From positions 6,442 through 70,441 of the IMG/VR virus record IMGVR_UViG_3300037512_001384: a DNA stretch of 64,000 nucleotides. One strand, given 5' to 3'. The DNA is from a virus. The notes beneath the pieces are model-generated. The model was given only the letters and a program-made list of their open reading frames with translations. It ran no database searches and was not told the origin of the DNA. This document shows positions 571 through 58,152 of the stretch, piece after piece (position 1 is the stretch's first letter; each line of letters starts with the position of its first letter). Made by a program: the position numbers and the translations under genes.

Positions 571-2658
571 ATGAACAAATACAGCAGCTACACTCCCGAT
601 GAGATGGATAACCTCCTGTCAGGTTATCTCATCGATTCATGGTCATACAGTAAGGTCAACACCTTCGCCCGTAACGAGAAGCAGTTTGAGAAGAACTTCG
701 TCTATCTCGAACCGGACAAACGCAGTATAAGCTCCATTGCCGGTAACGCCTATCACGAGGCGTTGAGGGTTTTCTTCATGGGCTACAATGAAGGTGCGAA
801 GAAGCCGGATCTTGTGGAGTTGTCAACGGTGGCATATAACTACATAGATGATGTTGACGCTAACACATGGAAGCTCAGTGATACTTATCCTTCCGTTGAC
901 CAGGCAAGAGAGCAATGTATCAAGATTGTCACTCTTCTGATTCAGAACTTCTGCGGCGAGTATGGTATCTATACCGACCATATAGCTGAGGTTCTGTCCG
1001 TCGAGGTCAAGGAAGAGTCTCTGGTGGTCTGCAACGGTGTCGATATCCCATTACCTCTGCATTATATTGCAGACCTTGTGATACGCACAAAGGACGGAAA
1101 GGTTGTCATCATAGACCATAAGAGCAAAAGCGCCTATACCGGTGACGATGAGGTCTCTCTTGTGCATGGTCAGCAGGCTATCGCTTACGTACTCGGATAT
1201 GAGCAGCATGACGAGAAGGATGACCGCCATGTAGATGAGGTCTGGTTCATCGAGAATAAGTATTCCAAGAACAAGAACGGCAGCGAGCAGCTTCGTCTGC
1301 ACCGTTTCGTGATGGATGAGGACTCACGCAAATTGCATGAGTATTATCTCTATCAGCCTCTTCGTCGTATGATAGAAGCTGTGGCTGATCCTGACTACAT
1401 CTACACAATCAACGCATCTGACAACCTTGCTGACAAGGCAGAGCTTTACGAGTTCTCGGCACGCACTCTGATTGCAGAGGTTGATGACTTCCCCAATATC
1501 CCGGAAAGGAAGAAGCCTCTGATAGAGAAACGTCAGCGTAAAATCAAGGACTCCAGCATCGCGATGATTTCACCGCGAGTCATACGTTCATTCAGAAAGA
1601 ATGCAGCATCGTTTATTACTTTCGACTATTCGCATAGCAATATGACAAACAAAGAAAAAATCGAACATAAGTTCCGTACCTTCGGCAAACAGGTTCAGGT
1701 AAGCCATGAGATAGAAGGATTCTCATGTAACACCTATCTGTGTGAGGTGGCGGCAGGCATACCCATCGCTTCTCTTAAGACATACGCGAAGGATATCGCT
1801 TACGCTCTTGATGTTCCGTCAGTACGTGTCGCTCAGGACCTGGTGGTACATGAAGGACGTTCTTATCTTTCCATAGAAGTGAGTAAGAAGAGTTCCGAGA
1901 TACTGGCATGGGATGCCAAATATCTTGAGGGTCATCGCATACCTCTCGGACTTGACAACTTCAAAGAGCCGGTAATATGGGATTTGGAGAACCATTCCAC
2001 TCCGCACATGCTTGTCTGTGGTGCTACCGGTTCCGGAAAATCCGTTCTTATCCGCTCTACTATCGCCTATGCCCTTCTCGCCAAGATGCGCGTTATCATC
2101 ATGGATCCCAAATACGAGTTCTCTGCATTCTCAGACAGATGTGAGGTTCATTCGGATATCGCAGACATAGAGAAACGCATGAAGGAACTTGTTGAGGAGA
2201 TGCAAGCCCGCAAGGGTACTTTCGGCGGTCTCACACTGATAGTATTCGATGAGTTCGCTGATGCAGTTTCATCGGCTCGTTCCGGCAAGGAGCTTGACAT
2301 CAGAGAGGAAGTGACAGTCGGTGAGTATAAGGATGGCAGACCGAAGAAGGAGTGGATTGTCACAGGACGTGACAAGAGTCTGGAAGAGAACCTGCAGATG
2401 CTCCTGCAGAAAGGTCGTTCTCTTGGTTATCGCATCCTGTCTGCCACACAGAGAGCTTCAGCCAAGGTTATCACAGGTGACGCCAAGGTCAATTTCCCAT
2501 GTATCTGTTGTTTCAGAGTACCCAAGGCTCTTGACAGTAAGGTTGTGATTGATGAGGATGGCGCACAAGCCCTTGCCGGTAACGGTGACGGACTGTTCAA
2601 GTCGCCTGAGTACATGGATCGTCTCGTGCGATTCCAGGGATTCTTCTATAAAGGATAA
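571..2658 (+). CDS. RecB-family PD-(D/E)xK nuclease fused to FtsK/SpoIIIE-like ATPase domain
   Basis: N-terminal half has GNAYHEAL, a D...IIDHKSKS PD-(D/E)xK core and a QQAIAYVLGY QxxxY motif (Cas4/RecB-like). C-terminal half has Walker A CGATGSGKS, Walker B LIVFDEFAD and an FtsK-like SATQRAS...FPCICCFRV block. One continuous 695-aa ORF placed directly after recT. Confidence 0.75.
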   Translation: MNKYSSYTPDEMDNLLSGYLIDSWSYSKVNTFARNEKQFEKNFVYLEPDKRSISSIAGNAYHEALRVFFMGYNEGAKKPDLVELSTVAYNYIDDVDANTWKLSDTYPSVDQAREQCIKIVTLLIQNFCGEYGIYTDHIAEVLSVEVKEESLVVCNGVDIPLPLHYIADLVIRTKDGKVVIIDHKSKSAYTGDDEVSLVHGQQAIAYVLGYEQHDEKDDRHVDEVWFIENKYSKNKNGSEQLRLHRFVMDEDSRKLHEYYLYQPLRRMIEAVADPDYIYTINASDNLADKAELYEFSARTLIAEVDDFPNIPERKKPLIEKRQRKIKDSSIAMISPRVIRSFRKNAASFITFDYSHSNMTNKEKIEHKFRTFGKQVQVSHEIEGFSCNTYLCEVAAGIPIASLKTYAKDIAYALDVPSVRVAQDLVVHEGRSYLSIEVSKKSSEILAWDAKYLEGHRIPLGLDNFKEPVIWDLENHSTPHMLVCGATGSGKSVLIRSTIAYALLAKMRVIIMDPKYEFSAFSDRCEVHSDIADIEKRMKELVEEMQARKGTFGGLTLIVFDEFADAVSSARSGKELDIREEVTVGEYKDGRPKKEWIVTGRDKSLEENLQMLLQKGRSLGYRILSATQRASAKVITGDAKVNFPCICCFRVPKALDSKVVIDEDGAQALAGNGDGLFKSPEYMDRLVRFQGFFYKG

Positions 2659-3424: not shown

Positions 3425-4258
3425 ATGAAAGATTCATTTGTTTTTCATAAAGACTGGTACTTAGCCTTAAAAGGGTTAGACGTTCAAGACAAAGTTGAGG
3501 TCTATGAAGCTATAATGAGCAAAATATTTGATGGTGTAGATAAGAAACTTTCGCCTGTTGCACAGATGGCAATGAATTTTATTTCGCCACAAATTGAAAG
3601 GGATGTTGAACGTTATAATTCCATTTGTGAGCAACGCAAACTATTTGGTAGTAAGGGCGGTATAGCAAAAGCTACCAAAAGCTACCAAAAGGTAGCAAAA
3701 GGTAGCAAAAGCAAGCAAAAGGTGGCAAGTGTAGCTGATAATGATAATAATATATCATCTTCTACTAACGTAGAATCTGATAATGATATTATAGATATAG
3801 AAGTAAAAGATAAATCTTTTCCTTCTAAGAAAAAAAATAAATTATTTATACCGCCTACATTAAACGAAGTAGAGGCGTATGTAAAAGAAAAAGGCTATCA
3901 TTTCAGCGCCAAGGCATTCTTTGACTATTACGAAGCGGATGACTGGCATTACGGCAAAGGCAGTAATAGAACAAAGATATCGAACTGGAAGCGCTGTTGT
4001 GCCACATGGGAGGAGCGGCGTACTACAAGTAATAATATACCTCGTGAACCCGCATCGTTGTTTGATAACCATACTCCCGAACCGGAAGACGAACAGACTT
4101 TATTACAGAAAGCATACGAAGAACTGAACGACACCCAGGAGGCTGAGATATACGGAATGGTCCCCTATGAGTTTCACATGCTGAATGAGAACGGCAAGAA
4201 ATATTGGCGCGAAGTTTACAAGGAAAAGATGCTTGATTGGATCAAGAGCAACAGATGA
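3425..4258 (+). CDS. putative replication initiator (lambda O-like organisation; lysine-rich repeat linker)
   Basis: 277-aa ORF immediately upstream of the primase-helicase, stop overlapping its start (ATGA). Contains an in-gene 10-bp iteron array followed by an AT-rich stretch. C-terminal W-rich block (AFFDYYEADDWHYGKG...NWKRCCATWEER) resembles phage replication-protein C-terminal domains. Confidence 0.45.
   Translation: MKDSFVFHKDWYLALKGLDVQDKVEVYEAIMSKIFDGVDKKLSPVAQMAMNFISPQIERDVERYNSICEQRKLFGSKGGIAKATKSYQKVAKGSKSKQKVASVADNDNNISSSTNVESDNDIIDIEVKDKSFPSKKKNKLFIPPTLNEVEAYVKEKGYHFSAKAFFDYYEADDWHYGKGSNRTKISNWKRCCATWEERRTTSNNIPREPASLFDNHTPEPEDEQTLLQKAYEELNDTQEAEIYGMVPYEFHMLNENGKKYWREVYKEKMLDWIKSNR
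3661..3730. repeat. 10-bp iterons GCTACCAAAA x2 then inverted GGTAGCAAAA x2 (+2 degenerate copies) inside the initiator gene; candidate origin
   Basis: Read directly: aaagctaccaaaagctaccaaaaggtagcaaaaggtagcaaaagcaagcaaaaggtggcaag. GCTACC and GGTAGC are reverse complements. Followed by an ~80% AT stretch at 3735-3860. Confidence 0.6.
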
Positions 4259-6150
4259 GCGACAATATTCTTTATGTAGAGGATTTCAGACACGTCTTAG
4301 GCAGCAGGTCATCAGGTAACATAAAAACCTTCTGTCCTTTCTGCCATGAGAATCGTGGAAACAAGAGGGATAAATCCCTTTCGATAAACTGCGCGACCCT
4401 GGCATATAACTGCCATTATTGCGGTGCGAGCGGTTATCTGAAATCCCGGCATGAGGAAATGATGCGGAGAATAGACAGGGAAACAAGACAGATGTCCAAG
4501 ACTTATCGCAAACCCTCGGTCAAGCCCAACCTTCAACCTAAGCTCAATGCGGACATGGTTGAGTATTTCAAAGGGCGCGGCATCAGCGAGAAGACACTTC
4601 TTGAGGCGAAGGTCACAAAGGAGAATTTCTTTTTCCCGCAAGACAATTGCAAGCGCGGATGTATCGCTTTCAACTACTATGTTGATGACGAGCATATCAA
4701 CACCAAATATCGCACAAGGGACAAGCATTTCGCATTCATTGCCGGTGCCAAGGTAGTCCCCTATAACATAGACAGCATAAGAGAGAGCGCATTCAAGAAG
4801 GGTGAAAAGAAAATCTGCATCATCACTGAAGGTGAAGCGGATACTCTCACTTATATCGAATGCGGCTATAAGCATGTCATATCCATGCCGTCCGGTGCTA
4901 ACACCAATCTGGAATGGATGGATGACTTCACCGAATCCCACTTTGATAAACTTGAACTGATTTATGTATCGACAGACAGTGACAAGAAGGGTGTTGAAGC
5001 CAAGAATGAGATAGTACGAAGGTTTGGAGCTGAAGTATGTAAGATAGTTGAGTATCCGGAAGACTGCAAGGATATAAACGAGGTTCTTGTCAAATATGGA
5101 CCGGAGAAGGTAAAGGAATGCTTCGAGGGTGCTGCGGATATTAGAATCCAAGGTGTCGAGGAACTTGTTGACATAGAGTCAGACCTTGACAACCTGTTTA
5201 CTTCGGGACTTCAAAAGGGAGTAACCCTGGGATTGGAGGATATGGATAAACTTCTGTCCTTCAATACCGGAATGGTGACGGTCGTTACAGGAATCCCTTC
5301 GCACGGCAAAACCCAATGGTTGAATTTCGCTCTGATCAGACTCAATATCCTTCACTCATGGAAGGTGGCGTTCTTCTCTCCTGAGTTCTATCCTGTAGCG
5401 CTGCATATATCCCAAATCATAGAGACGCTTGGAGGTAAAAGGTTCTCATCCCAGAACTATACGCCTCAGACTTACGGCATCCTGAAGGAGTATGTCAACA
5501 AGAATTTCTTTTGGGTGGATCCTGATGACACGGATATAAGCTCAGTCTTGGACAGAGCCAAGTTCCTCATCCGCAAGAGAGGTATCAAGGCGTTTGTGAT
5601 TGACCCTTTCAATTCGCTGACAGACGAGAAGCGAACGATATACAAGCAGGATGAATATATTTCGGACTTCCTGCAGAAGATACGATGGTTCGCCAGGAAG
5701 TATGACGTTGCAATGTTCATCGTCATGCATCCCACCAAACAATACAAGCAGGATAACGGCTTATATCCGGTCTGTGACCTGTACTCATGTAAGGGTGCAT
5801 CTGAGATATACGACAAGGCTGATATCGGCATCACCGTATGGAGAAACGAGCAGGGTAATTACGGTGAGGTGCATGTGACCAAGATGAAGTTCCGTCACAT
5901 GGGACAGAAAGGACATGACACTTTCGTCTATAACTTCAATAACGCCCGGTTCGTTGAGATTCCCACTATGGACGCGAAGCGTGTGGCTCCCGACATGGAT
6001 AAAGTGAAGTGGGATAACAGCAATTATGTAATTGAGAATATCAAGACGCAGCAGAATCAGCAGGAATTGGATTTTGGAGCGGAGCAGCCGGAAACACCAC
6101 ATAATGAAAAACCCTTTGATGCGCCGATAGACGAAGATATCCCGTTCTGA
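4255..6150 (+). CDS. bifunctional DNA primase (Zn-finger + TOPRIM) / DnaB-like helicase
   Basis: CPFCHENRGNKRDKSLSINCATLAYNCHYCG zinc finger; TOPRIM ICIITEGEADTL; Walker A GIPSHGKTQW; Walker B AFVIDPFNSL. ATG at 4255 overlaps the upstream stop (an in-frame ATG at 4237 is the alternative start). C-terminus ends in an SSB-like DEDIPF. Confidence 0.85.
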   Translation: MSDNILYVEDFRHVLGSRSSGNIKTFCPFCHENRGNKRDKSLSINCATLAYNCHYCGASGYLKSRHEEMMRRIDRETRQMSKTYRKPSVKPNLQPKLNADMVEYFKGRGISEKTLLEAKVTKENFFFPQDNCKRGCIAFNYYVDDEHINTKYRTRDKHFAFIAGAKVVPYNIDSIRESAFKKGEKKICIITEGEADTLTYIECGYKHVISMPSGANTNLEWMDDFTESHFDKLELIYVSTDSDKKGVEAKNEIVRRFGAEVCKIVEYPEDCKDINEVLVKYGPEKVKECFEGAADIRIQGVEELVDIESDLDNLFTSGLQKGVTLGLEDMDKLLSFNTGMVTVVTGIPSHGKTQWLNFALIRLNILHSWKVAFFSPEFYPVALHISQIIETLGGKRFSSQNYTPQTYGILKEYVNKNFFWVDPDDTDISSVLDRAKFLIRKRGIKAFVIDPFNSLTDEKRTIYKQDEYISDFLQKIRWFARKYDVAMFIVMHPTKQYKQDNGLYPVCDLYSCKGASEIYDKADIGITVWRNEQGNYGEVHVTKMKFRHMGQKGHDTFVYNFNNARFVEIPTMDAKRVAPDMDKVKWDNSNYVIENIKTQQNQQELDFGAEQPETPHNEKPFDAPIDEDIPF

Positions 6151-9292: not shown

Positions 9293-9363
9293 GGTCGTAT
9301 GGCGTAATGGTAGCGCAACAGACTTTGGTTCTGTGTGTCCCGGTTCGATTCCAGGTACGACTA
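9293..9363 (+). tRNA. tRNA-Gln (anticodon TTG)
   Basis: Cloverleaf folded by hand: acceptor GGTCGTA/TACGACT (G-U closing), D-arm GCGT-AATGGTA-GCGC, anticodon arm ACAGA-CTTTGGT-TCTGT (U33, TTG, G37), T-arm CCCGG-TTCGATT-CCAGG (one C-A mismatch), discriminator A. Confidence 0.65.
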
Positions 9364-9498
9364 CAAATTATTTCAGGGGAAATAAAACCTGAATCGGGGA
9401 AATTTTATCGCCCCAAAATGTGAGAGAAAGGCAATATTGGGAAATCAAAGGAAAATTTCCCCTGTTTTTCAGGTCAAACGGAACAACAAGAAAACAAC

Positions 9499-26667: not shown

Positions 26668-27510
26668 TTATGTGCCGGTGAAGAACCCCATACCGCTCAA
26701 GTCGAGATTATCGGCATCCACGCAGATGTAACGTGATGTCATGTTCTCGTTCTTGTTGTGGTTCATCAGGGCGCAGATGACGGCACGCGGCACACCGCGC
26801 AGAGTCAGGTTGGTGGCGAAGGATCTCCGGGCCGTATGACTCCCGACATACTCGTACTTGGGTCGCGTCTGCGTCTTACCGTGATAGAATATCTTGGTTT
26901 CCTGACTGATACCGCATCGGCGACAGATACGTTTGATGACATCGTTATAAACGGCTCTGTTATGTTCGCCGGTGGGCTTGTACTGCAGGTAACGCATGAG
27001 GTTGCGATGTATCGGTATGGAGCTCTCCACCTTCGTCTTCTGACTCACATAACACAGTCTGCCGTCAATGATGTTATGCTCGGTGAATGACTTGACATCG
27101 GACGTCCTGGCACCGCAGTAGCACTCGATGAGGAAAGCCGCCTTGATGTCCCGTTCCGTGTCATTATGGGGAACATATCGTTCGATACGCTCTATCTCCT
27201 CTTCCGTGAGATAGACGTTCTGTGACGGCACTCTCTTAGCCTTCAATTCCTTCCCGGGATTCTTACAGGGGAATAAATTCTCATCCAGATAAGCGGAAAG
27301 GAAAGCCTTCAATACGGCGAGATAGGTACATGCCGTATTACCGGCTACGTTGTCACAGATATTATCCCTCATCTCGGACAGGTTAAGCGTCGTGAGGTCG
27401 CTCCACTGCACCTCCTGAACGCCTATCGCATCACGCATATACCGAAGGATATGCGCATAGCTGGGTTGTCTTCTGACAAACTCCTGCTCAAAACTTAAAA
27501 TTCCGTTCAT
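26668..27510 (-). CDS. small tyrosine site-specific recombinase (Xer/invertase-sized, 280 aa)
   Basis: C-terminal catalytic region HTARRSFATNL...RGVPRAVICALMNHNKNENMTSRYI (R...HxxR...Y). No large N-terminal arm-binding domain. Confidence 0.8.
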   Translation of the reverse strand: MNGILSFEQEFVRRQPSYAHILRYMRDAIGVQEVQWSDLTTLNLSEMRDNICDNVAGNTACTYLAVLKAFLSAYLDENLFPCKNPGKELKAKRVPSQNVYLTEEEIERIERYVPHNDTERDIKAAFLIECYCGARTSDVKSFTEHNIIDGRLCYVSQKTKVESSIPIHRNLMRYLQYKPTGEHNRAVYNDVIKRICRRCGISQETKIFYHGKTQTRPKYEYVGSHTARRSFATNLTLRGVPRAVICALMNHNKNENMTSRYICVDADNLDLSGMGFFTGT

Positions 27511-27696: not shown

Positions 27697-29073
27697 TTAC
27701 AGGCGCAGTGTACCCGCTCTTGCCGCCTCACAGCGTCTCAGCACCTCCTTACGGTCACGTATGAGTATCCTGGCTCTCATATCCATACCTTCGCCCGTGG
27801 GCTTATCCAGGACACCTATCGCAACCATCGTGAGGAAGTCCTCGATTGCCATACGGCGTGTAAGAAGGAAGGGGAACATACCGAAGTTACGTGGCGTCAA
27901 CTCTGTCCTGCCTTGTGACTCCTGCAGGAAGAGGCATTCGGGTTGTCCCTTGATAGTAACGGTGACACATGGCGCATCCTCCTGTCCCGGGATGTCAAGC
28001 ACGGAACCGGTAAATGTACCTCTGCAGACAAGGTTGAGCAGTATAGCATCCTCGATGTACTCCGTATCTGCATATCCGCATTGTACGCGCACGTCATCAA
28101 TGCCGTCTGAGTAGAGCATATCACCCTTACCCATCAGGTCCTCGGCACCGGTATGGTCGAGGATGACACGCGAATCAATACCCGATGCGACGCGGAACGC
28201 GATACGTACCGGGAAGTTCGCCTTGATGTTTCCTGTCACGATGGTCGCCGACGGACGTTGCGTGGCTATGATCATGTGGATACCGACGGCACGGGCTTTC
28301 TGTGCGATACGGCATATCATACGCTCCATATCCTTCCCGGCTGTCATAATAAGGTCGGCATACTCGTCTATGACCACGATGCAGTAACGCATGTAGTCTT
28401 CACCGTTGAGCTTGTCATTATACTCTTTGATGTTACGTACTCCTTTCTGCGAGAGAAGGGTGTAACGGTACTCCATGAGGTTAATGACACGCTGCAGGAT
28501 AGCGACAGCATCCTCTGTGGTCGTGGCTATGTCATCGGCGAGATACTTGTGCCAGAGAGGAGCGTAGATGTTGAGCTCAACCTGTTTGGGGTCGATGAGC
28601 ACCAACTGCATCTCTTCCGGTGTGCGCTTGCTCATCAGTGAGAGCAGCAGCATGTTCAGGCATACCGACTTACCTTGACCGGTCGCACCGGCAATAAGCA
28701 GGTGCGGCATCTGTGTGAGGTCACGGATGAAGAGTTCTCCCTGTACCGTCTTGCCTATGGCGCATGGAAGTGCCATCCTGCAGGACTCGTAATCGACATG
28801 ATGCAGAACGCTGTCCATGTGTACTATCTGACGTTGGAAGTTGGGAACCTCAATGCCAATCGTACCGCCTGCGAGCGGTCCCATGATGCGTACCGACTCC
28901 GTACCGACCGCCAAGGCAAACTCATCAGCGAGTCTGCGTACACGTGTCATATTCACACCCATATCCGGTCTGAACTCATACAGGGTGACGCTGGGTCCTT
29001 TCGTGACTCTCCAGCTCAGCGGTTCAATCTTATGAACCCTGAGCACCTGTTCTAACTTGTAAGTGTAATCCAT
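27697..29073 (-). CDS. FtsK/SpoIIIE-family DNA translocase (motor + gamma-like domain)
   Basis: Walker A IAGATGQGKS; Walker B IVVIDEYADL; IATQRPSATIVTGNIKANFPVRIAFRV; C-terminal winged-helix-like EDFLTMVAIGVLDKP. Start MDYTYK is preceded by the conserved array upstream element. Confidence 0.8.
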   Translation of the reverse strand: MDYTYKLEQVLRVHKIEPLSWRVTKGPSVTLYEFRPDMGVNMTRVRRLADEFALAVGTESVRIMGPLAGGTIGIEVPNFQRQIVHMDSVLHHVDYESCRMALPCAIGKTVQGELFIRDLTQMPHLLIAGATGQGKSVCLNMLLLSLMSKRTPEEMQLVLIDPKQVELNIYAPLWHKYLADDIATTTEDAVAILQRVINLMEYRYTLLSQKGVRNIKEYNDKLNGEDYMRYCIVVIDEYADLIMTAGKDMERMICRIAQKARAVGIHMIIATQRPSATIVTGNIKANFPVRIAFRVASGIDSRVILDHTGAEDLMGKGDMLYSDGIDDVRVQCGYADTEYIEDAILLNLVCRGTFTGSVLDIPGQEDAPCVTVTIKGQPECLFLQESQGRTELTPRNFGMFPFLLTRRMAIEDFLTMVAIGVLDKPTGEGMDMRARILIRDRKEVLRRCEAARAGTLRL

Positions 29074-29320
29074 AATGATTGTTTGAGTTATTATTGGCGG
29101 AGCAGCTGATGTCACTCAATCAGCTCCAGGACGTGGGATTTGTCCTTTGGAAAAGTGATGCGCACCCATGTCAATGAGTACGCATCTGTTTAACTCTTTA
29201 AATACTACAACTATGCGCCTCACGGCGTTCGTATGTAATAATTAGCACAAAGATAAGGATTCGCCCTTATCCTTGTATGGCGATGTTAATCCTTAACATA
29301 GTTAATGTACGGATTTAACA

Positions 29321-44515: not shown

Positions 44516-45100
44516 TTAATCAACTTTGCAAACTCTTGTAAAACCAAATTTTGCCAACAGTTCAGGAGTTAAAAGACTTGCGTCTATTCCAAGACTTGCG
44601 GCCAGACTTGCGGACGCTCTTTGCAATTGCTTTTCATTTGCCTGCTTGCGTGCAGTCCGTGCAACTTCATCCCTGAATATATCGTAACTATTAAAACAAG
44701 TACGGAGGCCAGCGGCCGAAATTGTAGTTTTACGGTATGGAGTTAAACCGCTTTCCGTATTTCCTATTGTGTTTGTATCCGCTTCACTTTGAAAAGTGAT
44801 TGTAAAGTTGTTTGTTGCTTTCCTCACTTTTGCAAACACCCTCAAAAACAGATATTTTTCTGTTGCCATAAAAGGAGCGGAACGGAAAGAATCCGCAAAA
44901 CAAGCGGATAATTTATTAAGGTTTTCGGCCTCAATACTTGCGTTTTCGTTGTCAATACTTGCAAGTAGTTTGCTAATTGTGGTTTTACTTGCGTTTGCTT
45001 TTCTCAATTCCTTAACTGAAATACTTGTTACCAGTGTTTCAAGTTCAACGGTTGAAATACCTGAATAAAGGTAATCAACAAGATTTTTGTTTACTTGCAT
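44516..45100 (-). CDS. hypothetical protein (first gene of the minus-strand array, next to the origin-like region)
   Basis: 194-aa ORF with the upstream element. Confidence 0.5.
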   Translation of the reverse strand: MQVNKNLVDYLYSGISTVELETLVTSISVKELRKANASKTTISKLLASIDNENASIEAENLNKLSACFADSFRSAPFMATEKYLFLRVFAKVRKATNNFTITFQSEADTNTIGNTESGLTPYRKTTISAAGLRTCFNSYDIFRDEVARTARKQANEKQLQRASASLAASLGIDASLLTPELLAKFGFTRVCKVD

Positions 45101-45180
45101 AGTTGTAATATTTAAGAGTTAATAAAATAGTGTCAAAGTGCGCATATCGGAAACACCTTTCCGACACTATAAAATTACAA

Positions 45181-45370
45181 AAATAATCCGATATAATGCC
45201 AATATTTGTATATTTAACTTATGTTTAATTGATTGATATATAGTAAGTTATAAAGAAAGATTATACAATATTGTAGTATATATACAGGTTATTATTGTAT
45301 ATATACATAGATAGTTAATTATATAATAACTTAAATATATAGATATTTAACGGAAAAATACTTACAAATT
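45181..45370. other. ~80% AT stretch with TATATA-type repeats (candidate DNA-unwinding element of an origin)
   Basis: Base composition read directly; ORF-free. Confidence 0.45.
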
Positions 45371-45609
45371 GATCCCAGAGTTTCGGCAATAGGTGCAAAC
45401 CGATGAACACACAACCAACACGGCAATAAAGCGGAAAAGTTGCAAGGAGCGACAAACCCCACAACGGACCGACAACGCGACCGCGAGCGGATACAATACA
45501 ATTATAATGTATTTGTTTTGCAGGAAAAACCGCGCGAATACCCCACCCAGAGAAGGCTACCCCCGACCCCCTAAATACGTTTGTATTGCGTGGGGGTCAG
45601 CCCCCGCCG

Positions 45610-45850
45610 AGATTTTCAATTTTTCATTTTTCGTTTTTACTTTTCGTATGCGGAACATGTTTCTGTGTATCTCAATCGGTGTTTCTGGTCTATATATATC
45701 AGTCCTGATGCCGTGTATCCTTGTCTGCGCGTTGATTATGGTCTGATACATGGGTATCTATGGAAAAAGGGTCAAAAAAGCCTGAAAAAGCCCCAAAATA
45801 CCCTGAAAATAGGGGTCAAAAAGAGGTGCTTTTCCTCAAAAAAGGCTGTT
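45610..45850. other. phased T-tracts then A-tracts at ~10-bp spacing (intrinsically bent DNA)
   Basis: gattttcaatttttcatttttcgtttttacttttcg ... ggtcaaaaaagcctgaaaaagccccaaaataccctgaaaataggggtcaaaaag. Confidence 0.45.
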
Positions 45851-45854
45851 TTTG

Positions 45855-45975
45855 GCGTATGAATGTACCAAAAATGGAATTTGATGTACCAAAATAGAGA
45901 TTACCAAAAAAAAACGTAAGTTATTGAAATATAGGGTAGATATTTGTCATGCAATGAACCAAATGAACCAAATGT
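45855..45975. repeat. iteron-like repeats (TGTACCAAA x3, TGAACCAAA x2, ATTACCAAA) upstream of the SF3 helicase gene
   Basis: Read directly; irregular spacing and only 9 bp long, so not CRISPR. Confidence 0.55.
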
Positions 45976-46013
45976 ACCAAATTTCGATACCCAGGTATTG
46001 GTTTGTTTAGTTA

Positions 46014-47483
46014 TTGTTTTTATATATGGGTAAAGGTACACAAAACAACAATTTCACGCTTATTGAAGACCTTAGTAAGCTGATTTACAACTCGCTGAAC
46101 AAAGCTCCGTTGAAGGAGTCCTATAAGCTGTATTCATCGGGTGACAGGGTATATGTCTATCAGGAGGTCATCCTTGATGCCTGCAGCAAGTGTTTCCGGT
46201 CTTACATGGGTGATGTATATTACTTCGACGGCAGGATATGGTGTCCTCTGGCTGATATTGTGCTTGAGACTGCGTTGAGCAAGGCGTTGGTGCAGGGAGG
46301 AGCGCGTAAGTCGGATATCGTGAATGCCAGGAGCAAGATTCTGTATTCGGCACGTGGCGGTGCGTCGATGTCACCGTTGGAGTTGCGTGCGTCGGTCATC
46401 GGATTCCGTAACGGCGTATGGGATTTCACTGACATAGACAACCCGGTCTATCACTCTTTTGCCGAGCGTATGCCTGTGGTGCGGATACTCCCTTACGACT
46501 ATGACCCTGATGCGGGCTGTCCGAAGTGGCAGGCGTTCCTGCAGTCCATCTTGCCGAAGGGTGAGATAATGAAGCTCCAGAAGTACCTCGGTCTCGGCTG
46601 TGCTGACCGTAAGAGCATGACGCATAAGATTGAAGAGACGCTGTGGCTCATCGGGTCGGGTGCCAACGGCAAGTCCACCATCTTCGACGTGGTACGCGGG
46701 GTGTACGGTGCGGATAACATCAGCTATGTGGGTCTCGATACGCTGCTTAGCGGCTCGTCGGACGTGCGTGCGCGGTTCATCGGGAGCATCGTGGGTAAGA
46801 TCTTCAACTACTGCTCGGAGATACAGGCGGATGACATATCACGTTACGCCGATACCTTCAAGTCCCTCTGTTCGGGTGAGCCGCAGACCGTGAGAAGGTT
46901 GGGTCAGAACCCCGAGACCACCTTCGACATACCGTTCCTTGTGTTCAACATGAACCAGAAGCCCACGAACCGGCGTATGGACCAGGCTCTCGTGCGCCGT
47001 CTGCTCTTCATACCTTTCAAGACCACCGTCTCTGCCGCCGACATGAACCGTGAGCTCTCGTCGGAGCTGCTGAAGGAGCTGCCGGGTATCCGCAACTGGA
47101 TGATAGAGGGCTATAAGATGCTCATACGTGACGGCTATCAGTTCAACACCACCAAAGCCGCCGATGATGAGATGACCGACTACATGCTGGAGAACGGTCA
47201 GACGGTGCAGGTGTTCCTACAGAAGAAGGGCTACTCATGTAACAGGCGCACGGGACACTGGGAGGACCGTATCCAGTGGGTTCCTGCGTCCGCTCTCTAT
47301 GAGGACTATGTGTCGTTCTGCGAGAAGTGGCTGCAGGATCCTGTCAAGCAGCGTGCTTTCGGCAGTGAGATGGCACGTCTCGGATGGCATGAGACGGGAG
47401 GGAACCGCAAACGTACCGGCACGGGTTACGCCTACGGCATCTTCTGCGAGAAGGATATCGATTACGCAAAAAATAACATCTGA
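46014..47483 (+). CDS. P4/D5-family SF3 helicase (phage/plasmid primase C-terminal domain + D5_N-like)
   Basis: NGVWDFTDIDN...CPKWQAFLQSIL...LWLIGSGANGKST (Walker A)...FNMNQKPT...RRLLFIPF. Confidence 0.75.
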   Translation: MFLYMGKGTQNNNFTLIEDLSKLIYNSLNKAPLKESYKLYSSGDRVYVYQEVILDACSKCFRSYMGDVYYFDGRIWCPLADIVLETALSKALVQGGARKSDIVNARSKILYSARGGASMSPLELRASVIGFRNGVWDFTDIDNPVYHSFAERMPVVRILPYDYDPDAGCPKWQAFLQSILPKGEIMKLQKYLGLGCADRKSMTHKIEETLWLIGSGANGKSTIFDVVRGVYGADNISYVGLDTLLSGSSDVRARFIGSIVGKIFNYCSEIQADDISRYADTFKSLCSGEPQTVRRLGQNPETTFDIPFLVFNMNQKPTNRRMDQALVRRLLFIPFKTTVSAADMNRELSSELLKELPGIRNWMIEGYKMLIRDGYQFNTTKAADDEMTDYMLENGQTVQVFLQKKGYSCNRRTGHWEDRIQWVPASALYEDYVSFCEKWLQDPVKQRAFGSEMARLGWHETGGNRKRTGTGYAYGIFCEKDIDYAKNNI

Positions 47484-51416: not shown

Positions 51417-52034
51417 ATGGAGAAAGAAGAGTTGACAATTAAGATACCGTTCGGCAAGGCCGCACGTATCGGTAACTTCAAGATATGGCGTTCACGTGTG
51501 GAGCAGCAGTTCATGCCTCAGCTCTCCGACGAGCAGAAGGAGATGATAAAGGAAGGCAAGGCGCGACCCAAGAAGCTGAAAGGGGACATCGAGGCTATCA
51601 ATATCAGTAACCTTGACGGCACATGGATGGTACGCATACCGCAGACCTATGAGATGTTCGGCATGATCACCTGCTGCTATCAGTGGAGTCAGAGCCACAA
51701 CCCCGAGGACCGTGAGCGTGGTGTGAGTTTTCTCTCCACCGCTTTGTCGAACATGATATTCTGCTCGACGATTTGCAACGGATTCTACCACCAGGCTCTT
51801 AAGATGATAGCCACCGCCTACGCCCATCCGTCACTGCTGTCCGACAAGAAGCAGCGTAAGGATTTCGATAAGGAAGCCAAAGACCTCATCAAACGGTTCC
51901 TTGACTGGCGTGTGGAGTATGAGCGTCATCTCAAGGAGAAGGAGCTCAGCGATAAGGAACTGGAGCGTGACGCCAAGGCCGATGCCATGCGTGAGGAGCT
52001 GGCAAAAGCCGAGGAGGGTGAGAAAAGCGAGTGA
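51417..52034 (+). CDS. hypothetical protein
   Basis: 205-aa ORF. Confidence 0.45.
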   Translation: MEKEELTIKIPFGKAARIGNFKIWRSRVEQQFMPQLSDEQKEMIKEGKARPKKLKGDIEAINISNLDGTWMVRIPQTYEMFGMITCCYQWSQSHNPEDRERGVSFLSTALSNMIFCSTICNGFYHQALKMIATAYAHPSLLSDKKQRKDFDKEAKDLIKRFLDWRVEYERHLKEKELSDKELERDAKADAMREELAKAEEGEKSE

Positions 52035-52624
52035 TAGCTATGGAACTCTCGAAGACCAAGCAGAACGAAGCGAATAAATTGGGTGTGCCATTGCAGTATC
52101 TCATCATGGCGGATCTGATGGCTCTGGGTTATACCGAGGATGACGCGCATACCCTCGCCTATCCGGAGAACGCCTTGCTGTCCGAACAGAAGAAGAAGAC
52201 GGTCATCACCGGTATCATCGAGACCGCCAAGTTCCGCAAGCTGCTTGACACCCGCCGCGCACGTATCAAGGACGGTACGGCCGCTCCCATACTGCTTGAC
52301 GAGGTGGAGCTGGCAGACACAGAGGAGGTGCTGAAGGAGGTGCTGCGCTCAGCCAAGCAGCAGCCGGTCGGCTCCAAGGAACGCGCAGACCTGTTCGCAC
52401 GCTATCACGAGATAAAGACCAAGAACGAGCAGGGGTCGGAGGACGAGACCGATTACATCAACTTCGTCCTTCCCCTCAAATGCAACCAGTGTCCGCTCCT
52501 GTCGGCTTATAACGACTTCTTGAAACAGGAGGGTAAGAAAGAGCTCAGACCGGATGAGATGATGCATGTGATGCGTAACGCACATGTCGTTGTCGATGCG
52601 GCACGTAAGGCACATACGCTGTAA
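52031..52624 (+). CDS. hypothetical protein
   Basis: 197-aa ORF. Confidence 0.45.
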   Translation: MIAMELSKTKQNEANKLGVPLQYLIMADLMALGYTEDDAHTLAYPENALLSEQKKKTVITGIIETAKFRKLLDTRRARIKDGTAAPILLDEVELADTEEVLKEVLRSAKQQPVGSKERADLFARYHEIKTKNEQGSEDETDYINFVLPLKCNQCPLLSAYNDFLKQEGKKELRPDEMMHVMRNAHVVVDAARKAHTL

Positions 52625-55359: not shown

Positions 55360-58152
55360 TTAATTATAGTGTGGTGACAGCTTACGCACTGTCCTTACCC
55401 GGTTTCCTTTCTGGAGCCAGTTGGGTACGGTAGCCTGCGTATGCTTGATGTCGAAAATCTCACGCATAAACAGAGCCTCGAAGAAGTCCGGTGAGTGACC
55501 TACGACGGCTTTGTTCTTCATCTGTTCCTTGTGAATAAGACACCATCCCTTATCGGCTTTTGACATATCCTGCTTGACGCATTTACGTTCAAGCTGCAGG
55601 ATGGCATATAATGTCTTGATCTCCTTTCCTATCTTGTATTTGCGCTGCAGCAGTGTCGGCTCGATGCTCCATCCGGACTGCTGTGTGCGCTCCGCGAACT
55701 TGTAAGCGCACTGTGACTTCTTGTTGTCATAGAGATGCTTGTCCTTGACGGACACAGCCTCCTGGTTGTTGAACGGTACGGCACGCGGGAACGCACCTTT
55801 GAGCACCTGTCCCATTCCGTTGAGGTCATAGGCGAAGTTCTCCTCCAGCACACCCCACTCACGCAGTTTCTCTTTCAGCATGGATGCGGTGGTGAAGGGG
55901 TCACGACGGCATACGAAGACATCGGCGACATGCCATCCTATCCACAGCCATGTGACGCAGTTGTCACCGCCGTCACCTGCTACGTCACAGGTGGCGCGAC
56001 GTATCTTGTCACCTACCATCTGTGAGTTCTTGAAGCAGGAATCGAGATGGAACGGCTGTATCATGTCATCACCCATCTTGATGATGTCCCAGTTACCGTC
56101 GAACTCACGGGCCCTGATTTCAGGAGGTTGGTTGAGCAGTGATGCTATATAACCCGGGTCGTTCTTGAGCAGCGCCTTGTTGTCCTTGAGGTTAGCCTTG
56201 ACGAAAGTGACCGATTTGACGAAGAAGGAGGTCTTGGTGTAGCCGTACTGCTCCCACTCGGGGTCCCATGCGTCATCAATCATCTCCTTACACTGCTCAT
56301 ATACCTCTTCGGGTGTGTCACCCCAGATGATGTTATCCACGCTATCATCCGGCATGTAGCAGTAACGCAGCACGCCGTCACGCTCCGGTATGGCGAACCC
56401 TTTGCGTTCCGGGTGTTTCTTACCGTCGAGATAGACGGTATCCTCCTTGCCTATCCACCAGTCCACGAACTTACGCAGCCATGACAGAGGGTCGGGGTTG
56501 CAGGTGCCGAGGATACGAGAATGGACACCGACGGTGTTACGGTTACAGGTCATCAGGAACTTGAACATCTCGAACGGCATCTGCGGCAGCTCGTCGATAC
56601 CGATATACGCGAACTGCTGTCCACGGAACTTTCTGTCGAAGTCCGCCATCGGCATGTCGTAAATGGTCAGTCCCAGCTTGGCTCCGGAACGGAAGTTCCA
56701 GGTCATATCATCCTTGGACTTGTTGTATCGTCCGAGTCCGGAGAACCAACGCTGGCTTTCGTTGATGATATTATCGAAGTCATCCTTGTTCCTTCTGAAG
56801 ATGTAACCATTAAAGTGCTTGTTCTTGATGTCATACATCGGTTCCATGAGCATTGTCACGGTATTGTGGTTGATGGTGTATGCATCGGTCAGATACAGGT
56901 GGTCACGTCCGGTGACGGTGATGCAACGGCACTGCTGCTTGGTATGATCCTTCGTTATGTACTGGATTTTCTTGGACAGCATGTTGGTGCATTGCGGGTT
57001 GGTCGGACATTCGGCGTTGACCCTGACAGTCCGGTCCGCTCCGCTGCCTTTCCTGAACAGTTCCTTGTCGTTCGGCGCCTTCATGGTGACGCGCCACCAT
57101 CCGAGGTAATTGGGTTCATCCTCTACCTGATGCACACGCGCCCATATACCCAGCGAGCGTGCGAGTTCAGCTATATCATCTATGAAATCCTTGTTCGGGA
57201 GTGTGATTATCGGACAGTTATGTCTTGTACGTCCGGAGCGTGCCATGATGCCAAGCAGGTATGACCATCTCACGGACACCGCTGCAGTCTTATACTCATG
57301 CGGTATGCGACAGGGCTCTTCCTGTCTGCAGCATGTTATCCTGCGTCTGTTTTCGTCGCTGATGCCGCGAATATAGAAGAAGCCGTCTTCTGCGTTGAGG
57401 TTGACCTTATAACCCCAAGCGCGGTATCTGACACGCATGAACTTGTCATCATCGAGGCGGATTCCCTTCTTGCCGAACTCCCATGTCCCCTTGCTGCTAA
57501 GAACGCCGAGCAGATACGGATGTATAGGCATATCGATGGCGGTCTTCTGCTCGTTCATCTCCACCTTGCCACAGAGCGGTATCTCCACATACTGTGTCTT
57601 ACCCCTACGCAGTGACATAGGGAACGGACGGTCTATGACGTAGTTGTCGAATATCTCACGTGCGGTCATCTCATGGTATATGTCACCTGCACCCACGCGA
57701 GCCCAGAACCGGTGGTTGTTCATGCATTTGAGTGTCGTGCCGTCATCGAAGTGTAGCGTGTATATCGTCTGCTCACCCTGCTCGAATATCTCACTGACCT
57801 TCTGAACGCCGTTGTAGGGCGTACATATAAGGTCGCCCACCTCCAGGTCGCCCATCCTGCGGAATCCCGAGGGTGTGGCTACCATAGTGCTGTAGGGGTT
57901 GGCTTTGCCGCCGCCCCTGTTGCCGCCGAACACCGTGATGTCCGCGACATTACCGAGTCCGAACTCCTGAGCGCCATCCTGGACGATGAAATATTTGTTT
58001 TTCTTGTCCGTTTCGGCTATCGTCCGAATATGCGGTAAAAAATCGTGACTAAAGATGTTCTTTCCATCCTTAGTACGTAACGCTGTCAAGCATGTTGAAT
58101 CCTGCATATTTCTTATACATTTTTGACAAAGATATTTCAGAACAAGTGTCAC
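55360..58152 (-). CDS. terL: terminase large subunit carrying an intein in the Walker A P-loop
   Basis: Extein P-loop FGGNRGGGK|...|T rebuilt across the insert; Walker B AYIGIDE; C-terminal nuclease-like region. The 930-aa ORF minus a 347-aa insert leaves a ~583-aa terminase. Confidence 0.8.
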   Translation of the reverse strand: MTLVLKYLCQKCIRNMQDSTCLTALRTKDGKNIFSHDFLPHIRTIAETDKKNKYFIVQDGAQEFGLGNVADITVFGGNRGGGKANPYSTMVATPSGFRRMGDLEVGDLICTPYNGVQKVSEIFEQGEQTIYTLHFDDGTTLKCMNNHRFWARVGAGDIYHEMTAREIFDNYVIDRPFPMSLRRGKTQYVEIPLCGKVEMNEQKTAIDMPIHPYLLGVLSSKGTWEFGKKGIRLDDDKFMRVRYRAWGYKVNLNAEDGFFYIRGISDENRRRITCCRQEEPCRIPHEYKTAAVSVRWSYLLGIMARSGRTRHNCPIITLPNKDFIDDIAELARSLGIWARVHQVEDEPNYLGWWRVTMKAPNDKELFRKGSGADRTVRVNAECPTNPQCTNMLSKKIQYITKDHTKQQCRCITVTGRDHLYLTDAYTINHNTVTMLMEPMYDIKNKHFNGYIFRRNKDDFDNIINESQRWFSGLGRYNKSKDDMTWNFRSGAKLGLTIYDMPMADFDRKFRGQQFAYIGIDELPQMPFEMFKFLMTCNRNTVGVHSRILGTCNPDPLSWLRKFVDWWIGKEDTVYLDGKKHPERKGFAIPERDGVLRYCYMPDDSVDNIIWGDTPEEVYEQCKEMIDDAWDPEWEQYGYTKTSFFVKSVTFVKANLKDNKALLKNDPGYIASLLNQPPEIRAREFDGNWDIIKMGDDMIQPFHLDSCFKNSQMVGDKIRRATCDVAGDGGDNCVTWLWIGWHVADVFVCRRDPFTTASMLKEKLREWGVLEENFAYDLNGMGQVLKGAFPRAVPFNNQEAVSVKDKHLYDNKKSQCAYKFAERTQQSGWSIEPTLLQRKYKIGKEIKTLYAILQLERKCVKQDMSKADKGWCLIHKEQMKNKAVVGHSPDFFEALFMREIFDIKHTQATVPNWLQKGNRVRTVRKLSPHYN
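56863..57903 (-). mobile_element. intein (Ala-1, class-3-like) with LAGLIDADG homing endonuclease domain inside terL
   Basis: Block A ANPYSTMVATPSGFRRMGDLEVGDLI; block B LKCMNNHRF; LAGLIDADG-like YLLGVLSSKG and SYLLGIMARSG; block F/G RCITVTGRDHLYLTDAYTINHN followed by +1 Thr, which completes GKT. Confidence 0.7.

Follow-up and report, generated by a model that had tools for sequence, protein, structure and literature searches.

A conserved, repeat-rich element upstream of an SF3 helicase gene is a candidate replication origin in a family of Bacteroidota phages

The large T antigen of SV40 and the E1 protein of papillomaviruses are SF3 helicases that melt the origin and load themselves, and the core of their origins is a palindromic binding site next to an A/T tract, auxiliary sites being close by. 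P4 has an iteron-type origin whose type I iterons are bound by the alpha protein, and its ori is not known to lie immediately upstream of alpha. The origins of Streptococcus thermophilus phages are non-coding and repeat-rich and adjoin a gene for a P4-like primase/helicase (D5/P4 family). Iteron plasmids carry repeats at the promoter of their own initiator besides those of the origin, and Rep is autoregulated. SaPI Rep proteins are initiator and SF3 helicase in one: with a C-terminal winged helix they bind the iterons of an origin that adjoins rep; the iteron sequence is particular to each element, and the origin contains an AT-rich melting region (PMC9371898). P4 alpha has the identical order of SF3 domain and winged helix (PMC2777425).

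The DNA analysed here, referred to as the window, is a stretch of 64 kb from a Prevotella-type phage. Between a minus-strand ORF (44516-45100) and an SF3 helicase gene (ATG at 46026, stop at 47483) lies a region without a conserved ORF, 45101-46025, which is a predicted divergent promoter region. An earlier note on this DNA had seen no credible ORF in it, and this proved correct: none of the seven small ORFs inside 45101-46025 had a protein-level match in relatives, and the sole small-ORF matches (45901-46041, minus strand) tracked DNA repeats with a broken frame. Five of the 11 Tandem Repeats Finder arrays of the window fell within 45262-45982. Conservation was limited to the right 60% of the region (45486-46025). 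Support was found for the view of a genuine cis-element, non-coding and rich in repeats, that is linked to the SF3 helicase. The cumulative GC skew, which the earlier note had proposed as a check, reached its minimum at the region, but the curve merely tracks gene orientation, in the window as in the related phage PV4-TP1, and is uninformative for an origin.

Table 1. Features of the region and of the adjoining helicase gene (window coordinates)
Feature	Position	Strand	Remarks
Hairpin, 7-bp and 6-bp stems	45127..45170	-	DNA dG -7.7 kcal/mol, z -3.3
AT-rich stretch (83.7% AT, 190 bp) with 16- and 21-bp tandem repeats	45171..45360		composition; TRF arrays 45262-45350
Candidate Bacteroidota-type -7 promoter box TATTTTTG	45178..45185	-	pattern scan; faces ORF 44516-45100
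Conserved core element, ~170 bp	45486..45657	+	nhmmer E 2.4e-24; single copy in window
Degenerate palindrome copy, 9/12 pairs	45490..45513		family form GTTACATTATA-NN-TATAATGTAAC
GC-rich stem-loop GACCCCC (45565-71)...GGGGGTC (45592-98)	45565..45598		dG -11.1 kcal/mol, z -2.5
TCAGCC (family TGACC box), then CGCCGAGATTTT, then five T-tracts	45599..45645	+	candidate DNA-unwinding element
Seven phased A-tracts, 21-bp repeat x 2.8	45763..45845	+	candidate intrinsic bend, predicted
Dispersed iteron pair AATGTACCAAA and GATGTACCAAA with 21-bp spacing	45862..45893	+	5′ of promoter box
Sixth 'iteron' of the earlier note, GATTACCAAA	45899..45908	+	aligns with distinct conserved motif GATTTCCAGTGAT in relatives
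GATATTTG, 7/8 match to Bacteroidota -7 box TAnnTTTG	45939..45946	+	TATCTTTG in relatives
Tandem triple iteron AATGAACCA x 3.3, 9-bp period	45953..45981	+	predicted transcription start; candidate autoregulation operator
SF3 helicase, 485 aa	46026..47483	+	N-terminal domain, D5_N collar, SF3 ATPase, C-terminal winged helix
C-terminal winged helix, residues ~416-485	47271..47480	+	candidate iteron-binding domain

In the left part of the region, the strong hairpin that the earlier note had placed at 45129-45170 was recovered almost exactly, and its 190-bp stretch of ~80% AT corresponded to the most AT-rich 190-bp segment of the 64 kb, where AT averages 51.9% (sd 5.6). The note had counted both among the parts of an origin. 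However, the hairpin was not alignable in relatives, the AT-rich sequence aligned with no relative, and 45101-45485 as a whole was not conserved in any of them. The 194-aa product of the leftward ORF had no homolog in any related locus and no family match in Pfam or PHROG, and on these grounds it was rejected as a possible iteron-binding protein. The leftward mRNA of this ORF probably carries the hairpin in its 5′ UTR, and the TATTTTTG box may be used as the promoter of the ORF. Judged by its sequence, 45101-45485 looks like a lineage-specific junction made up of the promoter of the leftward gene, a 5′-UTR hairpin and an AT-rich spacer.

The conserved part begins with the core, which consists of a TATAAT palindrome, a C5 run, a TGACC-like box and CGCCGAGATTTTT (also given as CGCCGAGA) with T-tracts. 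The core was present in 78 of the 88 related helicase loci with enough upstream DNA, on the helicase strand every time and 196-1693 nt upstream of the helicase (median 427 in the 78 loci). When the core model was run on 120 unrelated viral loci (964 kb) as a control, three matched, two of which were contigs of the family itself. A scan of the collection with the 14-mer TCGCCGAGATTTTT was too unspecific, giving mostly chance matches, and later served as a negative control. The linkage of core and helicase persisted down to 31% helicase identity in PV4-TP1, a cultured Phocaeicola phage related to LoVEphage, and the helicase was the only gene that always adjoined the core and iterons across relatives. 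In the record of PV4-TP1, which names antibiotic induction as the source, core, iterons, gp97 and helicase occupy 62,560-65,233. Conservation of the module extends over a large family of phages of gut and rumen Bacteroidota; to this family belongs LoVEphage, which was reported to be highly prevalent in the human gut in a paper that makes no mention of origins, helicase or termini (PMC8525569).

Within the core, the arms of the palindrome co-varied symmetrically among 46 sequences, and their mismatches showed no strand bias (24 G-T and 38 A-C), indicating that the palindrome is a double-stranded DNA site, not an RNA hairpin. The GC-rich stem-loop described in the earlier note was confirmed in the window. 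It contains the C5 run (45567-45571), of which CCCC was invariant across the 46 sequences; the pairing partner was not conserved, as some relatives have GGGG-N4-CCCCC and others CCCCC-N3-CCCCC. The highest information content of the core was found in the segment of CGCCGAGATTTT, the TGACC box and the T-tracts, and CGCCGAGATTTT was retained even where helicase identity dropped to 43%. The T-tracts start at 45613, 45620, 45627, 45634 and 45641 in a block of 45 bp with 71% AT, and the DNA may unwind at this segment.

The core is followed by the A-tracts, which start at 45764, 45774, 45785, 45795, 45806, 45818 and 45838. The claim that T-tracts and A-tracts are both phased with the helix stood for the A-tracts, with a mean spacing of ~10.6 bp, but not for the T-tracts, whose 7-nt period is not helical. 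The phased A-tracts were also present in the closest relative and partially in other relatives.

Of six iterons proposed ahead of the helicase gene, six same-strand WACCAAA copies were indeed found (45866-45981, plus strand), but the sixth aligned with a different motif. The 10-mer ATGWACCAAA had five exact copies in the window, all within 45863-45981, a count that no shuffled sequence equalled. The positions and spacing of the dispersed iterons were kept in relatives. A (T/G)AnnTTTG box was present upstream of the helicase in 41 of the 45 non-redundant loci, and in most of these 45 loci tandem iterons followed the -7 box after 4-8 nt. The repeat unit itself differed: L011 has three copies of ATGTAGTAA at the place of the tandem triple iteron, and other lineages have their own unit. 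The lineage-specific 9-bp iterons include ATGWACCAA, ATGTAGTAA, TGTAGGTT, ATGTATAGT, GTGAAGCAA and others. Dispersed and tandem copies share one unit within each genome and change in concert between lineages, which is a signature of a putative DNA-binding protein that co-evolves with them. Mixed iterons were seen in the near-identical trio L165/L167/L168. All iterons in the window are direct, and inverted copies occurred only in some relatives, for example PV4-TP1. Because the core was kept across lineages with differing iterons, its reader would have to be distinct from the surface that recognises the iterons.

Several other readings of these sequences were tried and rejected. A leader peptide or uORF starting at the ATGs of the triple repeat (MNQMNQMYQ...) was rejected because L011 reads ATG-TAG and because the repeat motif is also present 5′ of the promoter box and occupies both strands in PV4-TP1. 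The palindrome and T5 were rejected as an intrinsic terminator, since the window family has no gene on the plus strand that runs in from the left, and in PV4-TP1 the palindrome is not followed by a T-run. As for attP, the core is intact between phage genes in the prophages L148 and L149 (Bacteroides contigs of 224-423 kb), and the integrase lies 18 kb from the core. T7-type primase sites (TGGTC/TTGTC) were discarded because the G/T-rich spacer that holds them was not conserved in a wider alignment.

The assignment of the downstream gene to the SF3/D5-type helicases was confirmed by Pfam (D5_N and DUF5906) and by the primase/helicase families of PHROG. The AF2 model (pLDDT 90) matched ASFV PrimPol, MPXV E5/VACV D5 and SaPI5 PriRep5 (7OLA) in Foldseek with E of ~1e-13, and the alignment with PriRep5 extended over ~450-490 columns. 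In fold, the C-terminal winged helix matched the P4 origin-binding domain. Pfam found no primase domain in the 485-aa protein, and the neighbouring genes are not primases either according to Pfam and PHROG. In a comparison aimed at the residues behind iteron specificity, the helicase differences specific to L011 clustered at residues 100-108 and 435-437, and the winged-helix region varied with iteron class, both being confounded with phylogeny. The protein probably acts as an initiator that loads itself, in the manner of P4 alpha or SaPI Rep.

A second replication module, which the earlier note had located at 3.4-6.1 kb, was borne out. It comprises a DUF6291 protein with an in-gene repeat (10 bp x 6.6) and a Toprim-DnaB fusion, 40 kb from the SF3 helicase, and another plausible origin of the window lies inside the DUF6291 gene at 3663-3728. 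Relatives of the module were found in Flavobacterium, Riemerella and Cellulophaga phages, no close relatives of the DnaB-primase were found in viral contigs, and the module looks separately acquired. PV4-TP1 has no homolog of this DnaB-primase and no other annotated replicative helicase, so that the SF3 module is its sole annotated replicon candidate. The phage-plasmid lifestyle suggested for a genome with two replication systems is weak, as a tyrosine integrase is encoded and relatives reside inside bacterial contigs of 190-423 kb and 2.07 Mb.

The comparative data, together with the P4-like winged-helix domain of the helicase, make an origin the best single reading, and we consider it reasonably probable that the region is an iteron-type origin combined with the autoregulated promoter of an initiator helicase that loads itself. 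To this extent the origin claim of the earlier note survives, but the left hairpin, the AT stretch and the classic P4 layout do not belong to it. In such an origin, the adjoining SF3 helicase would use 45486-46025 as its cis-acting region for replication initiation and control. The winged helix at the helicase C-terminus would bind the lineage-specific 9-bp iterons, namely the two dispersed copies and the tandem triple, and a bend at the phased A-tracts would carry this bound protein to the family-wide core. Melting would follow at the homopolymeric T-tract block (45613-45645), where hexamers would load. Because the tandem iterons directly follow the -7 promoter box, their occupancy may also repress the helicase operon. 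Binding, melting, autoregulation and origin activity are all proposed here from sequence features. In the SaPI layout, iterons stand on both sides of the AT-rich unwinding region, some of them in opposite orientation; it speaks against an origin that the iterons here all lie to one side, ~210 bp past the T-tracts. Further points against it are the small size (45 bp) and 71% AT of the T-tract block, the other plausible origin at 3663-3728 and the retention of the core across lineages whose iterons differ.

It is possible, if unlikely, that the region serves transcriptional control only, with the core as an upstream regulatory site and replication starting elsewhere, for example at 3663-3728. 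The iterons would then be operators for the helicase itself or for another phage protein and would control the rightward helicase/structural operon. The short distance between -7 box and tandem iterons, the divergent promoters and the position of the second, lambda-O-like origin candidate next to the DnaB-primase are consistent with this, and pure transcriptional autoregulation explains the tandem iterons at the promoter equally well. However, PV4-TP1 has kept core, iterons and helicase without the second module, and the core and dispersed iterons lie 100-400 bp 5′ of the promoter box. In addition, the one neighbour kept throughout is a helicase of initiator type that carries a P4-OBD-like domain, and no classical repressor, and a 45-bp T-tract array and a 24-bp palindrome would be unusual parts of a Bacteroidota promoter.

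A smaller chance is given to a joint reading, in which the core would be an unrecognised family-wide origin core of Bacteroidota siphophages, the LoVEphage group among them, read by a conserved factor, the iterons no more than a 'licence' of each lineage, and the phage a carrier of two regulated replicons. The conserved factor could come from the host, or the helicase itself could provide it through a surface that does not vary. With two replicons, the SF3 and DnaB-primase origins might act at different stages, one for instance in early theta replication or maintenance and the other in late replication.

That terminase recognises the core as a packaging site (pac or cos) seems to us very unlikely. 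Bent DNA and repeats recall pac/cosB regions, and an unannotated 188-aa gene of PV4-TP1, gp96, ends right at the core; the C-terminal part of gp96 has a weak homolog in the window at 52031-52624, beside the portal/terminase cluster, and could be a small terminase. However, gp96 and its homolog matched no terminase family in Pfam or PHROGs, and in the window family the gp96-like gene is 6 kb off; its position and strand vary between lineages, whereas the core stays with the helicase. The large terminase gene (55360-58152) is 10 kb away, and lineage-specific iterons adjoin the helicase gene and promoter box in every lineage examined.

Finally, we give next to no credence to a small non-coding RNA or RNA element (primer RNA, terminator or leader) encoded by the core: the TATAAT-containing palindrome with a T-run ~100 nt on, and the GC hairpin ahead of the T-tracts in the window copy, would suit it, but Rfam 15 yielded only a chance lncRNA match (E 0.69), RNAalifold gave 0 consensus pairs for the 46 sequences, several lineages have a C-run in place of the G-run that pairs with the C5 run, the palindrome mismatches have no G-U bias on either strand, no Bacteroidota-type promoter precedes the core, the leader-peptide reading fails in L011, and the hairpin, separated from the T-run by ~15 nt, is not a canonical terminator.

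If the region is the origin, a large group of temperate phages of Prevotella, Bacteroides and Phocaeicola, LoVEphage included, would have their first defined origin and initiator, and core, iterons and helicase would form a compact replicon of ~2 kb for vectors or for engineering of these phages. The iteron classes would provide natural specificity variants for DNA reading by the winged helix of an SF3 helicase. Because PV4-TP1 is cultured and inducible, the prediction is directly testable. With its second, separately acquired primase-helicase module, the window phage would also be a case for the coexistence of two initiation systems.

Among the known systems, the SaPI replicons share with this locus an SF3 helicase, a C-terminal winged helix, an origin-like region that adjoins the gene and has a candidate AT-rich melting block, and iteron units that vary by lineage. 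Whereas the SaPI origin is found downstream of the gene, the element here is found upstream; its 9-bp iterons are for the most part direct and do not enclose the AT block. The ~170-bp core with palindrome, C5 run, TGACC box and T-tracts has no SaPI counterpart, the helicase has no adjoining primase gene, and sequence identity is ~14%. The 'classic P4-type layout' named in the earlier note does not apply, given an element upstream of the gene, no primase domain and iterons that do not flank the AT block: unlike P4 alpha, the 485-aa helicase has no DnaG-type primase domain, and the 64 kb contain no second (crr-like) iteron cluster. Many S. thermophilus phages were among the tblastn matches to the helicase, although their hosts belong to another phylum, the elements have no sequence similarity and their proteins carry a primase domain. 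Compared with iteron plasmids, the initiator candidate is a helicase and not a RepA-type winged-helix dimer, and the promoter repeats are direct tandem copies instead of inverted half-sites. The likeness to SV40 and papillomavirus origins is architectural only, with no sequence relation; T antigen and E1 have an N-terminal OBD, whereas the winged helix here is C-terminal, and the OBD folds differ. Not yet described for these phages, the arrangement itself is of a known kind and most likely represents an origin with a self-regulating promoter.

We consider it fairly probable, inferring every functional step, that the conserved stretch from 45486 to 46025 is the origin and autoregulated promoter of an SF3 initiator-helicase. 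An nhmmer model of its ~170-bp core, built from twelve sequences after the upstream regions of seven relatives had been aligned, matched the window at a single position and was found in 78 of the 88 helicase loci whose upstream DNA spans 1200 nt or more; in every case it shares the strand of the helicase and lies 196-1693 nt upstream (median 427 nt). When 964 kb of unrelated viral DNA was searched, three loci matched, two of them family members. The consensus derived from 47 non-redundant copies comprises a palindrome (GTTACATTATA-NN-TATAATGTAAC), a ~35-nt spacer, (GGGG-N4)-CCCCC, a ~27-nt spacer and TGACCTCTCGTCGAGATTTTT-ATTTTT-TTTT. The window copy, whose palindrome is degenerate, retains the C5 run and an exact CGCCGAGATTTT, with TCAGCC replacing TGACC. 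In PV4-TP1, a cultured Phocaeicola phage related to LoVEphage, the same parts were recognized by eye in the same order upstream of the helicase (TATTATAGGTATAATATAA ... GGGAGGGCACCCCCCCC ... GGTCAAGATTTTTATTTTTTTTT), and numerous ATGTATAGT repeats come after them. No earlier description of this family-specific core was found in the sources searched. The kind of system is already known; PV4-TP1 makes a direct experimental test of the origin reading possible. Left of the core, some relatives carry a second repeat family in G/T-rich DNA (300-640 in locus L004, 2150-2560 in locus L005), in which plus-strand (C)TGGTCGT units are joined by three to five CCAGAAC units in the opposite orientation.

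The evidence is in favour of the core being a double-stranded DNA element. Rfam gave no match for it, and RNAalifold predicted zero consensus pairs in 46 sequences. Several lineages have a C-run in place of the G-run that could pair with the invariant C5. The two arms of the palindrome show symmetric covariation, and their mismatches showed no G-T bias on either strand (24 versus 38, with 50 others).

The iteron unit is 9 bp long, distinct per lineage and usually starts with (A/G)TG(T/A)A: ATGWACCAA in the window and the related helicase loci L001, L004, L005, L135, L165 and L169; ATGAACNAA in L012, L163 and L202; ATGTAGTAA in L011; TGTAGGTT in L008 and L009; TGTAGGAT in L010 and L204; GTGAAGCAA / ATGACGTAA in L176 and L208; and ATGTATAGT in the LoVEphage group. 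Within each genome, dispersed upstream and tandem proximal iterons share one unit. Exact ATGWACCAAA occurs five times in the 64 kb, always inside 45863-45981. A (T/G)AnnTTTG box, the pattern of the Bacteroidota -7 promoter element, was present upstream of the helicase in 41 of 45 non-redundant loci. Because the tandem iterons start within 4-8 nt after this box in most loci, the proximal copies occupy an operator position, where transcription is predicted to start. The dispersed copies are found upstream of the promoter, a placement that speaks against the iterons acting as RNA or as a uORF. Most lineage-specific units start with ATG, so that the 9-nt period creates in-frame AUGs (45953-45981 and equivalents in related loci), and several read start-stop (ATG-TAG, ATG-TAA). 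This pattern is probably a by-product of the putative binding motif; its regularity is odd.

A purely transcriptional role of the region would account for the proximal iterons but leaves unexplained the conserved core, the dispersed iterons and what kind of gene the sole invariant neighbour is. A pac or cos site is suggested solely by gp96 of PV4-TP1, whose gene abuts the core; however, gp96 has no terminase signature, and its homolog in the window family lies 6 kb from the core. In many members of the phage family, proteins like gp96 (~190 aa, unannotated, with a conserved C-terminal motif ...HYYLPLQCYRC...) are encoded close to the helicase or to structural genes, and in the LoVEphage group the end of the gene immediately precedes the core. 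They may be small terminases, but they had no family match. An attP site was ruled out because the core is intact within integrated prophages. Cumulative GC skew tracks gene orientation in the window and PV4-TP1 and therefore cannot discriminate between these readings.

Features of the window, with positions in window coordinates
Feature	Position	Strand	Detail
Second FtsK-like protein	571-2658	+	695 aa; PD-(D/E)XK nuclease domain fused at N-terminus
DUF6291 ORF	3425-4258		contains tandem array
Tandem array	3663-3728		10 bp x 6.6, TAGCAAAAGG-like; AT-rich stretch follows
Toprim-DnaB primase-helicase	4237-6150		directly downstream of DUF6291 gene
tRNA-Gln gene	9293-9364	+	anticodon TTG; amid early-region genes
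Short tyrosine recombinase	26668-27510	-	280 aa; PHROG integrase
Soluble FtsK/SpoIIIE-family protein	27697-29115	-	FtsK_alpha and FtsK_SpoIIIE domains
194-aa ORF	44516-45100	-	
Tandem repeat	44921-44962	-	21 bp x 2, within 194-aa ORF
Hairpin	45127-45170		dG -7.7 kcal/mol, z -3.3
AT-rich stretch	45171-45360		83.7% AT
TAnnTTTG box	45178-45185	-	left part
Core	45486-45657		
Degenerate palindrome	45490-45513		
GC-rich stem-loop	45565-45598		dG -11.1 kcal/mol, z -2.5
T-tracts	45613-45645		five, 7-nt period
Repeat-like motifs	45684-45745		TCTGGTC and ATGGTCTGA; cf. second repeat family of L004/L005
Inverted repeat	45746-45758 / 45986-45998		13 nt, ATACATGGGTATC / GATACCCAGGTAT; 12/13 complementary
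A-tracts	45764-45838		seven, ~10.6 bp spacing
WACCAAA iterons	45866-45981		six, on one strand
SF3 helicase gene	46026-47483	+	
gp96-family protein	52031-52624	+	PV4-TP1 locus (L133): 2335-2898
Large terminase	55360-58152	-	930 aa

The intergenic region (45101-46025) is flanked by the minus-strand 194-aa ORF and the helicase gene. An earlier note had described it as free of credible ORFs, and the small ORFs within it indeed show no protein-level conservation. The strong hairpin, GC-rich stem-loop, 190-bp AT-rich stretch (the extreme of the whole window) and six iterons that it listed were all recovered. Its helical spacing held for the A-tracts but was wrong for the T-tracts because of their 7-nt period. 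Five of the window's 11 tandem-repeat arrays lie in 45262-45982. The inverted repeat that brackets the A-tract and iteron block was not evident by eye in the closest relative and could be due to chance.

The left part of the region (45101-45485) had no alignable counterpart in the upstream regions of the seven relatives, the adjoining 194-aa ORF had no homolog in any related locus, and precisely in the intergenic region G+C rises stepwise, from ~0.45 over 1-45 kb to ~0.53 over 46-64 kb, indicating that the left part is a lineage-specific module junction; ~45000-46000 resembles a recombination or module junction. Relatives do not share the genes left of the step. The 194-aa ORF had no Pfam or PHROGs match, and the minus-strand TAnnTTTG box would place the hairpin in its 5' UTR.

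The window contains a second replication module at 3425-6150, consisting of a DUF6291 protein and a Toprim-DnaB fusion, both with relatives in Flavobacterium, Cellulophaga and Riemerella phages. The array within the DUF6291 gene is a candidate lambda-O-style in-gene origin. PV4-TP1 shares the terminase (49%), portal (41%), short integrase and SF3 helicase with the window, has no homolog of the DUF6291 or Toprim-DnaB protein, and has no other replicative helicase annotated; its annotation yields no candidate replicon besides the SF3 module. Because PV4-TP1 keeps the SF3 module without the DnaB-primase module, the former belongs to the family backbone and the latter is an addition in the window phage, which makes the note's suggestions of a second replicon and a chimeric genome reasonable.

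The window comes from a large tailed phage. A protein on a 107,074-nt metagenome contig is 100% identical to the window's helicase, and related viral contigs measure 103-110 kb. The window also encodes a portal, large terminase, major head protein, methyltransferases, two FtsK-like proteins, ArdA and a tyrosine integrase. Helicase relatives in Prevotella and Bacteroides genomes and, at 31-32% identity, in cultured LoVEphage-group phages of Bacteroides/Phocaeicola indicate a Bacteroidales host and a temperate lifestyle by integration. Given the integrase and the relatives integrated in bacterial genomes, the proposed phage-plasmid lifestyle was unsupported. The 280-aa recombinase gene adjoins the soluble FtsK/SpoIIIE-family gene; its PV4-TP1 counterpart, gp84 (38% identity), lies beside a gene annotated as a ParA-like ATPase. 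The pair resembles an Xer/FtsK-style pair and could serve dimer resolution instead of integration. Alignment of the PV4-TP1 terminase is confined to residues 431-909 and 23-84 of the window terminase, whose extra N-terminal ~350 aa match Hom_end (homing endonuclease/intein) and a DnaC-like P-loop; this suggests an intein or large insertion in the ATPase domain.

The protein encoded downstream of the proposed origin and promoter, an SF3 helicase as the note had stated, carries the Pfam domains D5_N and DUF5906 and no primase domain. Its confident AF2 model (pLDDT 90) matches, over nearly the whole length, the helicase portions of ASFV PrimPol, MPXV E5/vaccinia D5 and SaPI5 PriRep5. In SaPI Reps, which are SF3 initiator-helicases, a C-terminal winged helix recognizes iterons in the origin adjoining rep (PMC9371898); SF3 and winged-helix domains follow each other in the same order in P4 alpha (PMC2777425). 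These matches and the shared domain order indicate that the window protein has an origin-binding initiator-helicase architecture that lacks the primase.
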